11,256 nt of DNA, taken from a candidate division WOR-3 bacterium (GTDB lineage: Bacteria > Hydrothermota > Hydrothermia > LBFQ01). The DNA lies in NCBI GenBank assembly GCA_027050205.1, contig JALUCS010000079.1, positions 1-11,256 of the forward strand, written 5' to 3'. This document shows, piece by piece, positions 1 through 11,256 of this stretch. The notes below the pieces were generated by a model, which saw only the letters and a program-made list of their open reading frames with translations, was not told where the DNA came from and searched no databases. Each line of letters opens with the position of its first letter. Positions within the stretch are counted from its first letter, which is position 1. The position numbers and the translations under genes are program-made.

Positions 1-1488
1 CCGATAGCCGAACTGATGGTGAGCCTGATAGAGGCGCCGAAGGACGTAAGGGTCCTTGACAGCGGGTGCGGTAGGGGGGTGTTCATAGAGGCACTCCTGA
101 AGGCCGGCTTCAAGAACGTACGGGGAATAGAGATAGACCCCCAGCTCTACGCCGAATGCTCCGGGAAGTACGGAGACAGGGCGGAGATACTGAAGGGCGA
201 CTTCCTGAAGCACAGGGACACCTACGACGTCATAATCGGCAATCCCCCTTACGTGCATTTCAACAGCCTTCCTCCCCATCTGTCCGAAGAGGTGAGCCGG
301 ATAATCCGCTCCCGCGAGGGCGACATATACTACGCCTTCATCCTGAAGGCTCTGGAACTTTTGCGGGAGGGTGGGCAACTGGTGTATATCGTCCCCTACC
401 ACTTCTTCTACAACACCTACGCCAGAGTCGTCCGTGAGGCCCTCTTGAGGAAGGGGAGCCTTGAGGTGGTGATAGACCTTGACGAGGTGCGGATATTCTC
501 AAAGAGTCCGGAGACGGTCATATTCAGGTTCGTAAAGGGGAGAAAGGGGGAGAGGATGAAGATCCTCCGGATAAAGGACCGTAAGGCGACCCCCAAAGAG
601 ATAAGGGACCTCGCCCTTGATGCCCTGAAGAATGGGCGGTCCAACCGCCTGTTTCACTACTCGGAGGCCCCGCAGTTCCGGACGGCCGGGCCGTGGTCCT
701 CCTTCGTCGCCGGGATCCCCGAATTTGAGGGTATCCCCCTCAAAAAACTGGCCAAGGTGGGGGTGGGTCTGGTCTCCGGCTTTGACGAGGCCTTCAGGGT
801 CTCACAGGAGGAGCTAACGACCTTCAGCGACGAGGAGAGGAAACTGGTTAAGAGGTTCGTTAAGGCCAGAAACTGCGACCGCTTCGTCGTCAGGGGGCAT
901 GCCCTATACATCGTTATGGACGACCGCATCCGGGACGAGGGACATCTAAGGGAGAGGTACCCCAACATCTACGCCAGACTCCTGCCCTACAGGGAGAGGA
1001 TGACGAAGAGGTACCTTCCGGCGGGGAAGCGGTGGTTTCACTATCAGGCCCTCCGGAACTACACCTTCCTGCTCTCCCACATCTCCGAACCGAAGATATA
1101 CGTCCCTACCCTTGACAGGCGCCCCTACAACCGCTTCAGCCTCTCCTACGGCCCAGATCTACCCTCCGGGGACGTCCTCTTCATCTACCCCTACAGGAGG
1201 GAGGACCTCCTGTTTCTCCTCGGCTACTTAAACACCCGCTTCTTCAGGGAGTACTACCTTGGGCGGGGAGGGAGGAGGGGCGGGAGGGTGTCCTTCACCC
1301 AGAGGCTCCTTGAGAGGGCGGAGGTACCGGCCTTCAGCAAAGAGGTGAAGGAAAGGATATCCGCCCTGTCCGGAGAGATAGTCTCAAGACGGATGGAGGG
1401 GGAGGATACAACGGCCCTTGAGGAGGAGATTGAGCGTACGGTGAGGGAGGCCATAGAGGGGGGAAGGCGGACGGTCTCGTTGTTCTGA
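1..1488 (+). CDS. N6-adenine DNA methyltransferase, gamma class (M.TaqI/Eco57I-like), 5'-truncated by the window edge
   Basis: Motif I VLDSGCGRGVF, then GIEID and GDFL, precede catalytic motif IV IIGNPPY, the gamma order. DIYYAFI and LVYIVP follow, then a C-terminal TRD-like region ending LLGYLNT. The frame is open from base 1 (ccg ata gcc gaa ctg atg = PIAELM, resembling the end of motif X), so the true start is upstream of the window. Confidence 0.9.
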   Translation, partial: PIAELMVSLIEAPKDVRVLDSGCGRGVFIEALLKAGFKNVRGIEIDPQLYAECSGKYGDRAEILKGDFLKHRDTYDVIIGNPPYVHFNSLPPHLSEEVSRIIRSREGDIYYAFILKALELLREGGQLVYIVPYHFFYNTYARVVREALLRKGSLEVVIDLDEVRIFSKSPETVIFRFVKGRKGERMKILRIKDRKATPKEIRDLALDALKNGRSNRLFHYSEAPQFRTAGPWSSFVAGIPEFEGIPLKKLAKVGVGLVSGFDEAFRVSQEELTTFSDEERKLVKRFVKARNCDRFVVRGHALYIVMDDRIRDEGHLRERYPNIYARLLPYRERMTKRYLPAGKRWFHYQALRNYTFLLSHISEPKIYVPTLDRRPYNRFSLSYGPDLPSGDVLFIYPYRREDLLFLLGYLNTRFFREYYLGRGGRRGGRVSFTQRLLERAEVPAFSKEVKERISALSGEIVSRRMEGEDTTALEEEIERTVREAIEGGRRTVSLF

Positions 1489-8366: not shown

Positions 8367-8662
8367 CGCACCAGATAGAATGCCCTGTACCCTCTACGGC
8401 GCAGTATCTCCGCCGCCTTCCTCGCTATTCCTCCGGATGGACAGGAGCATACGGTTACGTAGTAGTCGTAGCCTTCGGGTGGGTCGTATCCCCCCATTAT
8501 GTCGTACAGGGGGAGGTTGTAGTTAGCTCCTAAGGGGGCATTTTTGAAGAACGAGGGGGACCTGACGTCCAAGAGCAGGACCCTCCCCCTCAACCTCTCA
8601 GCGCTGTCGGGGGTTATGGCCAGACTGTCTAACCCGCTTGCAGCGTAAAGTACCCATACCAT
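8342..8662 (-). CDS. Rhodanese-like domain protein
   Basis: ITPDSA...LLLDVRSPSFF...NLPL...VTVCSCPSGGIARKAAEILRRRGYRAFYL gives the rhodanese DVR motif and a Cys active-site loop followed by AAxxLxxxG(F/Y). It overlaps both neighbours (34 and 25 nt). Confidence 0.8.
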   Translation of the reverse strand: MVWVLYAASGLDSLAITPDSAERLRGRVLLLDVRSPSFFKNAPLGANYNLPLYDIMGGYDPPEGYDYYVTVCSCPSGGIARKAAEILRRRGYRAFYLVRWTKGKGK

Positions 8663-9003
8663 GCCGCGAACGTCCCGTAGAGGAAGAACAGGACACCGAA
8701 GATTACGAGGAGTACGCCTATCGCCTTACGGTAGGGACGGAGGGAGTTTATCTCCGTAAGGATGCCGAAGAGGCCGTAGAGGCCGTGGTAGAGACCGAAG
8801 CCAACAAAGAAGGTGTAGATGATGGTCATTATGAGGTCCTTGGAGCGGGCGAGGACGCTCGTCCAACTTAGGGGGTTGGAGGGGTCGCTCATGGGAGCGG
8901 CGGCGCCGGCGGAGAAGTGCATCAGGGATAGGTGGGAGAAGAGAAGGAGGAAGAGAAAGAAGCCCGCTATCAGGTGAAACGCCCAGAGCTTTCCGCCTTT
9001 CAT
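8629..9003 (-). CDS. sdhD: Succinate dehydrogenase/fumarate reductase membrane anchor subunit (SdhD-like), 124 aa
   Basis: Three hydrophobic helices. WAFHLIAG...FSH(24)LSLMH and LYH(73)GLYGLFGILTE match the SdhD WxxQRxTG...H...H(A/G)xxGlxxixxD pattern. The start was moved to ATG 9003 because the track start at 9048 lies inside the duplicated ompA tail. Confidence 0.75.
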   Translation of the reverse strand: MKGGKLWAFHLIAGFFLFLLLFSHLSLMHFSAGAAAPMSDPSNPLSWTSVLARSKDLIMTIIYTFFVGFGLYHGLYGLFGILTEINSLRPYRKAIGVLLVIFGVLFFLYGTFAAWYGYFTLQAG

Positions 9004-9010
9004 AGAGGGT

Positions 9011-9016
9011 ATTCTA
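9011..9016 (-). promoter_or_regulatory. -10 box TAGAAT, 7 nt before ATG 9003
   Basis: The minus strand reads TAGAAT-accctct-ATG. Confidence 0.68.
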
Positions 9017-9040
9017 CCCCCGTTCCGCCTACCGTTGTAT

Positions 9041-9098
9041 CCCCTCACTCAAACTTTATCTCCACCCGCCTGTTCTTGGCCCTCCCCTCCGGGGTGTC
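9041..9098 (-). repeat. Direct repeat copy 1: orphan duplicate of the last 17 codons, stop and 4 nt of the ompA-like gene
   Basis: 56/58 identical to 10518-10575. The minus strand reads DTPEGRAKNRRVEIKFE*. Confidence 0.97.
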
Positions 9099-9124
9099 AG
9101 CAACACGGTAAAACAACGGAATTT

Positions 9125-9745
9125 CTACACTTCGGGCAGGTGTTTCCGAAGGAGGGTACTCCCTATTTGCTCAAGTACGGACTTCGCCACGTCGTAGCTC
9201 GCCGTCCTTATGTGGGCCGTTCCCTCCGGCTTCAGGGGAACCTTCAGGTCTATCTTCCAGTCCTTACTCACCTCAAGGACATCCCTGACCTTGACCGTGA
9301 GGGCGTCTTTCTTACGCTCCGGTGAAAGGGGCATACAGGGGTCGGCGTAGAACACGCCGTACCCACCTACGAAGAAGAGGGTTGGCTCGTCCCATTTGAC
9401 CTCCCCATCCCCCAGAACGTTTATAAGATGCACCGTCCCCCTCCTGCGGGTGAAGCTGCCCTTGAGTGAGAACTTACGTCCGTCAATCTGAAGGTCGTAC
9501 CTCTTTTCCCGTAGCCATACACATTCAAACCCGAGGGCCTTGAGGAGGGCGCAGAAGAGGACCTCCAGGGCTCCCCCCACTACGAAACGGTTCTCATGGT
9601 TTCGGGTATCGTAGGATTCCACCAACCTCTCAAGGGCCTTTTCAAACTCCTCCCGGTACTTGCGGTTGCTCTCGTCCTTTAGAGCATCGCGTATCCGTTT
9701 GAAAATCTTACGATGTTCCTTGAACCTAAGGCAACTTTCCATCAC
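9125..9745 (-). CDS. Putative Type II restriction endonuclease (PD-(D/E)XK fold, D...SxK variant)
   Basis: It is translationally coupled to the MTase (GTGATG overlap with the stop; start is 9745 or 9742). GGALE...RYDLQIDGRKFSLKG resembles the GxxxE...D...SxK catalytic layout known from Cfr10I/NgoMIV-type enzymes. The family was not recognised. Confidence 0.65.
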   Translation of the reverse strand: MMESCLRFKEHRKIFKRIRDALKDESNRKYREEFEKALERLVESYDTRNHENRFVVGGALEVLFCALLKALGFECVWLREKRYDLQIDGRKFSLKGSFTRRRGTVHLINVLGDGEVKWDEPTLFFVGGYGVFYADPCMPLSPERKKDALTVKVRDVLEVSKDWKIDLKVPLKPEGTAHIRTASYDVAKSVLEQIGSTLLRKHLPEV

Positions 9746-10482
9746 CTCCCCCCTGCAAACAGCTCCCGTTCGGTCTTCGCTATCCTCTCCCTCGCGAACT
9801 CGTAGTACTCCGGCACTATCTCAAACCCAAGGAAGCGCCTGTTCAGGAGCTTGGCCGCAACGGCCACCGTCCCGGAGCCAAGGAAGGGGTCAAAGACGAC
9901 GTCCCCCTCGTCACTGCTGTACAGGATTATCTTCTTCACTATCTCAAGGGGTAGCTTGGTGGGTGTCTTGACCTTACCCTTCCAGTACTCCCGCTTTATG
10001 ATCCAGACGTCCTCCGGGTAATGCTCAATCTTGTTGAACTTGTACCTCTTCTCATCCTTGACCACGAAGAGGATGTGGTAGTGGCTCGTGACGAACTTCC
10101 GGCGGGTGAAGACCCCGAACTGGTACTTCCATATTATGTGGTTTATCGTTATGAAGCCCACCTCGTCAATCGCGTTCAGTATATCCTTCAGGTTCGTCCA
10201 GCCGGAGAAGACGTACATACTTCCCGTCTCCTTCAGTATCCTGTGGGCCTCACTCATCCACCGCAGTGTGAACTCGTAGTACCTCTCCTTCGGTATCTCG
10301 TTGTACCCCTCCAACACCCTGTCCTGCGACCTGTTGTAGTTGGAGCGTTTGGCCTTGAAGTCTATGGCGAAGGGCGGGTCGGTGACTATCAGGTCTATGC
10401 TACCTTCCGGTATGTCCTTCATGAGGACGAGGGAGTCTCCGAGGTATATCTCGTTCAGGGCGAACCTCCCTACCCTTTCCAT
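9742..10482 (-). CDS. Site-specific amino (N6-adenine or N4-cytosine) DNA methyltransferase, beta class
   Basis: IYLGDSL and catalytic motif IV DLIVTDPPF lie near the N-terminus. PTKLPLEIVKKII and motif I VVFDPFLGSGT, then GFEIVPEYYE, lie near the C-terminus, the beta order. Confidence 0.93.
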   Translation of the reverse strand: MERVGRFALNEIYLGDSLVLMKDIPEGSIDLIVTDPPFAIDFKAKRSNYNRSQDRVLEGYNEIPKERYYEFTLRWMSEAHRILKETGSMYVFSGWTNLKDILNAIDEVGFITINHIIWKYQFGVFTRRKFVTSHYHILFVVKDEKRYKFNKIEHYPEDVWIIKREYWKGKVKTPTKLPLEIVKKIILYSSDEGDVVFDPFLGSGTVAVAAKLLNRRFLGFEIVPEYYEFARERIAKTERELFAGGR

Positions 10483-10491
10483 ATGCGGGGT

Positions 10492-10497
10492 ATTATA
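10492..10497 (-). promoter_or_regulatory. -10 box TATAAT, 9 nt before the MTase ATG
   Basis: The minus strand reads TATAAT-accccgcat-ATG. Confidence 0.68.
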
Positions 10498-10517
10498 AAC
10501 CCGGTACCCTGACCCGC

Positions 10518-10575
10518 CCCCTCACTCAAACTTTATCTCCACCCGCCTGTTCCTGGCCCTACCCTCCGGGGTGTC
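10518..10575 (-). repeat. Direct repeat copy 2: the functional 3' end of the ompA-like gene
   Basis: 56/58 identical to 9041-9098, with mismatches at 10553/9076 and 10561/9084. It reads DTPEGRARNRRVEIKFE*. Confidence 0.97.
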
Positions 10576-11256
10576 GTTGGGGGCTATGGGCTTGCGGGAG
10601 CCGTACCCCACCGTCCTTATCCTCTTCGGGTCTATCCCCTTACTTATGAGGTACTCGGCGACGGCCTTCGCTCTCCGCTCCGAAAGCTTCTGGTTGTACT
10701 CCTCGGAGCCGATTATGTCGGTGTGGCCCTCTATTACGATCTTGAGGTCTGGCCGACGTTTGAGGAGCTGGACAAGGCGATCCAGCTCAAGCCTGGATTC
10801 GGGTTTCAGCCTCGCCGAGTCAAAGTCAAAGAAGATGTTCTTGAGGACGAAGGACTCCCCCTTCTTTATGGGGGTTATGGGGACGTCAACCCTCTTCTCC
10901 TCGTACTCCTTCAGGCCCTTGAGGTCAAAGTTGAGGGATTGGAAGGCGTAGTGAAGGGAGTCTACGGGCTGGGCGCTTATACCGTAGCGTTTCCCGGAGG
11001 GGAGTACCACCGTAAAGCGGCCGCTGTCGTCCGTCGGGGACCTGAACCAGACCTTCCCCGTCGTCAGGTCCTCTATGGTGATGAAGGCCTTCAGTGGCCT
11101 CTTGGTCTCGGCGTCATATACGAAGCCCTTCACCAGATTGACCGGTTCGGGTATGACCTTCCTCTGGGCGGGGGTCAGGGACTTCCTCTCCGGTATCTTC
11201 GCCCTGTAGAGGTGGTATATCCTTACGCCGCTCTTCGGGTCTATGGAGTCCACCCG
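10522..11256 (-). CDS. OmpA-family peptidoglycan-binding protein (carboxypeptidase-regulatory-like domain plus OmpA_C; PorE-like), 5'-truncated by the window edge
   Basis: NIFFDFDSARLKPES, IEGHTDIIGSEEYNQKLSERRAKAV and GYGSRKPIAPNDTPEGRARNRRVE define OmpA_C. They are preceded by VKGFVYDAETKRPL...TDDSGRFTVVLP (CRD-like). The frame is open to the window edge. Confidence 0.93.
   Translation of the reverse strand, partial: RVDSIDPKSGVRIYHLYRAKIPERKSLTPAQRKVIPEPVNLVKGFVYDAETKRPLKAFITIEDLTTGKVWFRSPTDDSGRFTVVLPSGKRYGISAQPVDSLHYAFQSLNFDLKGLKEYEEKRVDVPITPIKKGESFVLKNIFFDFDSARLKPESRLELDRLVQLLKRRPDLKIVIEGHTDIIGSEEYNQKLSERRAKAVAEYLISKGIDPKRIRTVGYGSRKPIAPNDTPEGRARNRRVEIKFE

Follow-up and report, generated by a model that had tools for sequence, protein, structure and literature searches.

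Organization of the locus

The window, i.e. the whole stretch of 11,256 nucleotides analysed here, is contig C79 of G000, a 2.05-Mb assembly of an uncultured vent bacterium. On the minus strand, an ompA-domain gene is followed by a 35-bp leader, a methylase gene, a 206-aa ORF, a 26-bp spacer, a second copy of the ompA end, a 37-bp leader and an sdhD-like gene (Table 1). The two ompA ends, denoted as copy A (coding) and copy B (orphan), are identical at 56 of 58 nt and lie 1477 bp apart from start to start, as an earlier note on this DNA had read them. They form the sole near-identical long direct repeat of the window. The 58-mer occurs twice in the whole assembly, with no third copy, the next match measuring 16 nt. 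Read on the minus strand, each copy comprises the final 17 codons of the gene for the OmpA-domain protein with their stop, then 4 G residues; one synonymous and one Arg/Lys change distinguish the two. The ompA gene is kept whole, as the note held, copy A being the coding tail with its stop codon. The gene runs past the window edge and continues on contig C70 (exact overlap of 127 bp with the C70 end), and its orthologues are open frames of 656–706 aa in 11/11 family genomes. The cargo proper (1419 bp, 9099–10517) is made by two genes, and its GC content (0.53–0.58) is the same as that of the flanks. No recombinase resides inside the unit, again as claimed; the two tyrosine recombinases of the genome are on contigs C70 and C100.

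Both junctions and all 30 depth bins are covered by Logan contigs in 4/4 sequencing runs (X1 to X4) from 3 studies; the runs holding the stretch are labelled hydrothermal-vent metagenome. Because contigs of all four runs span both junctions, the duplication is no artefact of a single assembly, the first objection that the note had foreseen. X1 may be the source sample, and the independent support is therefore that of X2–X4 (2 studies). The sdhD-like gene has been named from Atlas features (top matches 0.94–0.95, Sdh_cyt on 17–48% of members), and has no Pfam match. A second Type II methylase is found at the contig edge (window positions 1–1488, PADLOC E 2.6e-123), and no nuclease that could partner it is seen in the window.

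By its sequence, the R-M operon leader is likely a leaderless-type promoter. The leader is kept, with its TATAAT box, in G002 and G005, and is similar in G001. The -10 region of the sdhD-like gene is likewise conserved in congeners, and the upstream neighbour of this gene differs among 6 congeners. Neither a sigma-70 two-box promoter nor a terminator was matched within positions 8900–10700. In the genome of G000, 497 of 1314 TATAAT/TAGAAT sites have an ATG 6–10 nt downstream, a raw count taken with no shuffled baseline. This count suggests that leaderless transcripts may be widespread in G000 and, if so, they would make single genes portable.

Table 1. Features of the ompA/R-M/sdhD-like region, in window coordinates
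Feature	Position	Strand	Evidence or remarks
3' part of the gene of an OmpA-domain outer-membrane protein of ~660 aa	10522..11256	-	PF00691, E 2.3e-31
ompA block common to G000 and the distant congener G005; candidate recombination anchor	10522..11031	-	22 differences/510 bp vs 52/225 bp before it
Copy A of the repeat, the coding end of ompA (17 codons, stop, 4 G)	10518..10575	-	polymorphic among strains at 10545, 10553, 10555, 10561
R-M operon leader, -10-like TATAAT (10492–10497) 9 nt before ATG	10483..10517	-	sequence
Type II N6/N4 DNA methyltransferase, 246 aa, DPPF motif	9742..10482	-	PF01555, E 4.5e-44; PADLOC MTase_II, E 2.3e-61
Predicted Type II restriction endonuclease, 206 aa, PD-(D/E)XK fold	9125..9745	-	predicted model, invariant residues, methylase neighbours
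Stretch absent in a natural variant (175-bp deletion)	9571..9745	-	deletion joint present in a single contig of X3 and in one of X4
26-bp spacer between nuclease stop and copy B; putative non-homologous joint at spacer end	9099..9124	-	
Copy B of the repeat, an orphan end of ompA preceding the sdhD-like gene	9041..9098	-	
sdhD-like membrane-anchor gene (8629–9003, 124 aa) with its own -10-like TAGAAT (9011–9016), 7 nt before ATG	8629..9040	-	

The methylase and the predicted nuclease

Homologues of the methylase were found in 9/13 relatives. The 206-aa ORF has no sequence match in Pfam, PADLOC, NCBIfam or PDB, and 80 homologues of it were collected. A structure model, derived from the alignment of the protein with 37 homologues (pLDDT 90.3), matches 3ndh (Z 10.7, rmsd 3.8, 159 residues aligned), NaeI (Z 8.8) and SwaI (Z 7.2); the best match found by Foldseek reached only E 4e-3. 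Residues E61, D84, S93 and K95 (S93-x-K95) are invariant in 38 sequences, and the nuclease homologue adjoins a methyltransferase at 30/36 homologous loci. On the grounds of the fold and the presence of catalytic-type E, D and K residues, the protein is predicted to be a Type II PD-(D/E)XK restriction endonuclease of the ThaI kind; it represents an unannotated thermophile family. The cargo is thus a predicted R-M pair, M being assigned by Pfam and PADLOC, and R by the predicted fold, the invariant residues and the methylase neighbours, in agreement with the note, which had called the two genes a methyltransferase and a putative endonuclease.

PDB entry 3NDH is the ThaI restriction endonuclease, whose site is made by E54, D82 and S91-x-K93 and whose partner is an N4 methyltransferase, according to the parts of the ThaI paper used here (PMC3025569). 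The likeness includes an Asp residue without a preceding Pro, and the S-x-K motif at the same spacing (D84/S93/K95 here, D82/S91/K93 in ThaI). The methylase partners compare as an N4 enzyme for ThaI and an N6/N4-family enzyme for the predicted nuclease. The two proteins share only 12% identity, with no sequence-level match. The attempt to read the target of the nuclease from palindrome depletion failed: CGCG occurs in G000 at 0.43 of the expected frequency, and ten palindromic patterns are more depleted.

Genes found behind ompA in related genomes

The ompA gene was located in 13 relatives (6 congeners, 5 sister-genus genomes and 2 more distant genomes; none is conspecific). The earlier note predicted an empty site, in which the sdhD-like gene would come straight after ompA, and proposed to look for it among relatives. 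Homologues of the sdhD-like gene are present in 13/13 relatives, but ompA lies beside it in 0/13, the two genes being on different contigs in 13/13; all relatives belong to other species, and gene order among them is scrambled. Neither a genus pattern search nor a family DNA search detected the empty site, and one metagenome scan gave a single locus, of the G006 type. The ompA tail is found in one copy in each matching relative genome.

Filled alleles vary. In G002, ompA is followed by the same M and R genes, then by a glyoxalase gene; in G004, the glyoxalase gene is directly behind ompA. G004 and G002 make an empty/filled pair at the ompA-glyoxalase site, which could result from either loss or gain. 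In G005 the methylase is alone; it breaks off some 20 bp short of its end, where a different gene is joined to it. In the remaining 10/13 relatives unrelated genes reside behind ompA, and the first downstream gene has no defence match (the G006 neighbour was scanned via its match L057). Among the 22 proteins scanned in the 13 relatives no other defence cargo was found: the two PADLOC matches, an ankyrin protein and a PUA-domain SAM methyltransferase, are both second genes. Since this R-M pair is the only defence cargo seen behind ompA, in 2/13 relatives, the idea of the ompA tail as a reusable landing site for defence cassettes finds no support. In G003, the 750 bp directly behind ompA (L025:2272–3021) hold no ORF of at least 90 aa, and are possibly a decayed insertion.

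The R-M pair is also found away from ompA in G001, G007, G008 and G010, as are nuclease matches in G006 and G011, and none of these 6 family loci features an ompA tail. The G001 pair shows 79% DNA identity, which falls inside the 69–82% background. An ompA match was found at 0/36 distant homologous loci, contrary to the expectation that homologous pairs elsewhere might carry the tail. Bracketing repeats mark 1/36 distant loci (L121), a count in which many flanks are short and two loci match family members already counted in their identity values. At L121 (1800–3955), the R-M homologue is bracketed by 86-bp and 53-bp direct repeats of its own (86% and 92% identical). Because the pair occurs away from ompA in relatives, at background identity in G001, it appears to be an old resident of the family rather than foreign cargo, the tie to ompA being local to three species.

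Variation among strains

Both the nuclease gene and the repeats vary in the metagenomic runs. The 175-bp deletion listed in Table 1 took place at an 8-bp microhomology and removes nuclease residues 1–56; in the X3 and X4 contigs the sides of the joint measure 29 and 22 letters, and sides shorter than 30 can stem from other organisms. Two truncated database proteins, P0082 and P0083, begin at the deletion joint. In other genomes of the family, nuclease fragments alone are left behind the methylase (G009), and the matches in G008 and G011 have one stop each.

In X2, X3 and X4 the ompA-side contig carries the copy B letters at both 10553 and 10561, and Lys is the usual residue at the Arg/Lys site in 6 congeners. 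The note had viewed the two tails as former coding alleles. The two observations argue instead that the differences in the window reflect turnover of the coding copy, the ompA copy having probably drifted or recombined. All four repeat-abutting contigs lose alignment at repeat position 28 in X2 and X3; two of the four are listed for X4, and agree with X2/X3. Contig ends fitted to the 31-mer graph suggest that in X2–X4 a 57-bp repeat is identical in both copies, both differing from the window at position 28. Co-varying copies, if read correctly, suggest that one copy has converted the other or that the repeat has formed more than once, and they weaken the case for two coding alleles. Copy B of X1 is the same as in the window, and an ompA allele with four changes is also present. 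In X2–X4 depth is lower at the sdhD side than over the cassette, with no dip over the cassette; depth is one figure per contig, with species mixed (in X4, a G005-type loose end is found at 9762), and is uninformative on empty-site cells.

Probable transfer through the ompA end

The methylase of the window is 96.5% and 96.4% identical at the DNA level to those of G002 and G005, respectively; at the sdhD-like locus identity is 75.3% and 66.4%. The similarity to G005 extends into ompA. At third codon positions, G000 and G005 differ at 208/492 sites in upstream ompA, at 13/153 over the final 459 bp of the gene, and at 18/230 in the methylase. The controls have no step (155/492 and 48/153 for G006; 195/492 and 49/153 for G001). 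The best breakpoint is 510 bp before the ompA stop, a position chosen after seeing the data. In this block the distances of G005 to four other congeners drop to G000-like values, and those of G000 stay near upstream values; G005 is therefore likely the recipient. The trees of ompA segments are short and in part weakly supported. Other G000–G005 stretches are also 89–96% alike, so exchange between these species is not confined to this locus. As the note supposed, the ompA tail moves together with the R-M genes, though as a long anchor (~500 bp into G005) and not as the 58-bp end of an element.

In G002 the pattern is different. Its ompA is 91–100% identical to that of G004 in each alignment window, up to the gene end, with no long anchor; the pair may have entered through a short anchor, or may have been lost later in G004. 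The latter shares with G002 8 bases after the ompA stop, and may have lost the pair rather than never having had it. In G002 the 32-bp spacer behind R holds the terminal 9 bases of ompA; by shuffling, P is 5e-5 for a suffix of that length and 0.002 for a 9-mer from anywhere in the final 60 bases. The 26-bp spacer of the window is present in 1/12 family genomes, G000 only. The right-hand ends thus differ in the three species (G000, G002, G005), and look independent.

The reading that fits these data best, and which is probably correct, is that donor DNA entered by homologous recombination through ompA on one side and by a non-homologous join on the other, the old 58-bp tail being left behind. 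The R-M pair, an old family resident, would have come to lie behind ompA in a genus in which gene order is scrambled. The conserved 3' end of ompA could then have served as a homology anchor, bringing ompA-M-R DNA into lineages where different genes followed ompA. The donor segment would pair with the resident ompA, and its far end would join the recipient 58 bp before the end of the old ompA, leaving the old tail in front of the sdhD-like gene. Each entry would have made its own right joint: the 58-bp tail next to the sdhD-like gene in G000, the 9-bp echo next to the glyoxalase gene in G002, the cut methylase 3' end in G005. The two 58-bp copies would since have recombined or been converted, and loss would likely begin with inactivation of the nuclease. 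The model requires a recipient allele in which ompA stood next to the sdhD-like gene, and assumes uptake by natural transformation. A ComEC-family gene was found in 5/5 and DprA in 3/3 congeners tested; both are weak evidence of competence, because they occur also in 10/14 control genomes. The anchor signature is observed for G005, not for the insertion in the window.

In a model like that of the earlier note, a 1477-bp circle carrying one 58-bp tail plus M and R would arise by excision, or from a ligated linear donor, enter by a single crossover at the ompA ends, and be excised again. The repeat geometry fits such a circle exactly, repeated excision and re-entry would account for the co-variation of the copies among strains, and single-crossover integration of circularised donor DNA with duplications has been described in E. 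coli (PMC3240628, in the parts drawn on here). Yet G002 and G005 carry the pair without a distal 58-bp copy and with different right ends, and G005 took ~500 bp of ompA, more than the circle holds. Neither excision nor circle joints are listed in the 4 runs, whose contigs are unable to resolve such forms. The circle is accordingly rated unlikely.

Improbable to a similar degree is that no insertion took place in the window, ompA-M-R having been in place already: the tail would derive from partial tandem duplication or template switching, and a later rearrangement would have brought it to the sdhD-like gene. The ompA-M-R linkage is indeed common to three species and the ompA-tail/sdhD junction is found in G000 only, in a genus where gene order is scrambled throughout; the distances of G000 suggest a donor, not a recipient, relative to G005. 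Copy B has the 4 G also found after ompA in filled alleles, but the G run following the stop is present also in G004, which is without the pair. Two events would be needed, and the joint made by the second would have to coincide with the ompA stop and lie immediately outside the sdhD-like promoter; the 9-bp echo in G002 points to an independent entry at the ompA end. Both the circle and the internal duplication keep some probability, because no empty allele has been seen and G000 looks like the donor in the single transfer with a readable direction. One-ended homologous recombination through ompA is the reading retained in the following.

Other repeats bracketing defence genes in G000

Comparison of G000 with itself identified 116 same-contig direct-repeat pairs, mostly CRISPR-like or due to multi-copy paralogues; 14 are low-copy. 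Five of the 14 are orphan gene or promoter pieces found around R-M or toxin-antitoxin genes, three more look like paralogue or chance matches by their ORF list, and six others were less closely inspected. CRISPR-like arrays are many, with at least 3 repeat types, and reside on contigs C7, C12, C30, C38, C53, C66, C78, C83, C85, C96–C98, C127 and C131.

Four pairs, of 46–265 bp, flank genes elsewhere in the genome and speak also for one-ended entry as proposed above. At C109:15670–18457 (L076) a 265-bp copy of the valS 5' end (94%) brackets a Type II methylase and a 363-aa gene. The full valS of G000 is 97% identical to those of G002 and G004, far above background, and on contig C4 of G004 two valS 5' fragments (200 and 95 bp) surround a 404-aa gene. 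At C126:38139–38865 (L077), upstream of a Type I specificity gene, a nucleotidyltransferase/HepT-like pair is enclosed by a 46-bp repeat (98%) that contains a -10-like box and purines resembling a ribosome site. At C78:14951–18753 (L078), behind a ResIII-type gene, a 149-bp copy of a methylase 5' end (99%) encloses that methylase itself (598 aa), together with an AAA ATPase (PADLOC HEC-01A-like) and a gene of 178 aa. At C95:15213–16961 (L079) a 75-bp internal piece of a Type II methylase (93%) is repeated upstream of an MvaI/BcnI-family ORF, which measures only 148 aa (227 in the model) and is possibly broken. No clean empty site was found for the valS and C126 cases in 5 congeners, C126 being judged from matches alone.

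A two-coding-allele origin was considered for these sister repeats and rejected: the valS and C95 remnants changed mostly at non-synonymous positions, as decaying copies do. The valS remnant differs from valS by 7 non-synonymous and 5 synonymous codons. Only C78 (2/2 synonymous changes) and one of the G004 valS fragments (6/8 in third positions) fit the two-allele pattern. The resemblance of the valS remnant to a decayed duplicate speaks for the internal duplication discussed above, and counts against the preferred reading.

That all five orphan-piece repeats among the 14 low-copy pairs involve R-M or toxin-antitoxin genes would suit a hypothesis of the Kobayashi group, in which the nuclease cuts the target and repair copies the flank, giving rise to a long target duplication; a role of double-strand breaks is suggested in the portions of Furuta et al. 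consulted (PMC2853133). Several data disagree with such a route. CGCG, which ThaI recognises, does not occur in the repeat, although the predicted nuclease may have another target. One of the four sister cases is without a DNase, the 404-aa gene surrounded by valS fragments in G004 does not resemble a defence gene (by look, with no defence scan), and G005 has the methylase alone at the ompA site. Among the alternatives it is the least supported, and highly improbable. Recombination anchored in ompA remains the preferred explanation.

Comparison with known systems

Insertion of R-M genes with long target duplication was reportedly first described in H. pylori by Nobusato et al. in 2000.

R-M complexes inserted in this manner have been catalogued by Furuta, Abe and Kobayashi (2010; PMC2853133), in terms, as given in the sections of that paper used here, of the presence of both R and M, an insert <20 kb, a unique repeat >30 bp and no mobility gene. 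In the H. influenzae cases the repeat measures 46 bp, with 44/46 identity between copies; repeats span start or stop sites, the target gene stays intact, and most species are naturally competent. The unit in the window has M and a predicted R, an insert of 1419 bp and a unique 58-bp repeat; the insert is free of integrase and transposase genes, and the target is the end of a protein gene, not a tRNA. It is like the cases of 2010, as far as these sections describe them, in carrying only R and M with no mobility gene, in the repeat spanning a stop codon, and in the intact target gene. Those cases were defined by comparison with empty sites; here 0/13 relatives, all of other species, show one. 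The locus has no recombinase of its own, its right ends differ among species and the cargo is not varied, a picture unlike that of a site-specific element or a cassette landing site.

In homology-facilitated illegitimate recombination, as described in the parts of PMC3240628 drawn on, the foreign DNA pairs over a long homology at one end and is joined non-homologously at the other; usually ~1 kb is deleted beside the anchor, and 3–10 bp of microhomology are found at the joint. Single crossovers leaving duplications of 109–950 bp are described there as well. The G005 allele resembles such a product. Unlike in the products described there, a 58-bp tail could be left at the present locus only by a joint lying within the anchor gene itself.

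The locus is likely an insertion with long target duplication of the kind catalogued in 2010, formed via one-ended homologous recombination. Insertions of this kind are already known, as is the integrase-free spread of defence genes, and their mechanism is still argued. Among open-access publications, to which the search was confined, none was found to link ompA, R-M genes and target duplication. The several stages seen at one locus speak for plain recombination anchored by homology rather than for a dedicated element; the locus also provides exact junctions. A wider and distinctly tentative extension, more doubtful than probable, is that conserved gene ends act as recombination handles throughout this thermophile genus: a self-contained R-M unit with a -10-only promoter would cross between species diverged by 25–35% on the ompA end, and would by turns insert, have its repeats converted, lose its nuclease and be excised. 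Gene order would be scrambled by that process too, without a recombinase. According to Furuta et al., in the sections used, R-M release and re-entry have no experimental evidence (PMC2853133); gene ends acting as handles, if true, would make the genus a natural, multi-species record of the entry step in the proposed R-M life cycle. What is new here is the anchor signature across species, the co-varying copies and the natural loss of the nuclease; the transfer between species with ~500 bp of the target gene, the three right ends and the co-variation of the copies go beyond the cases of 2010, as presented in the sections of that paper used here.
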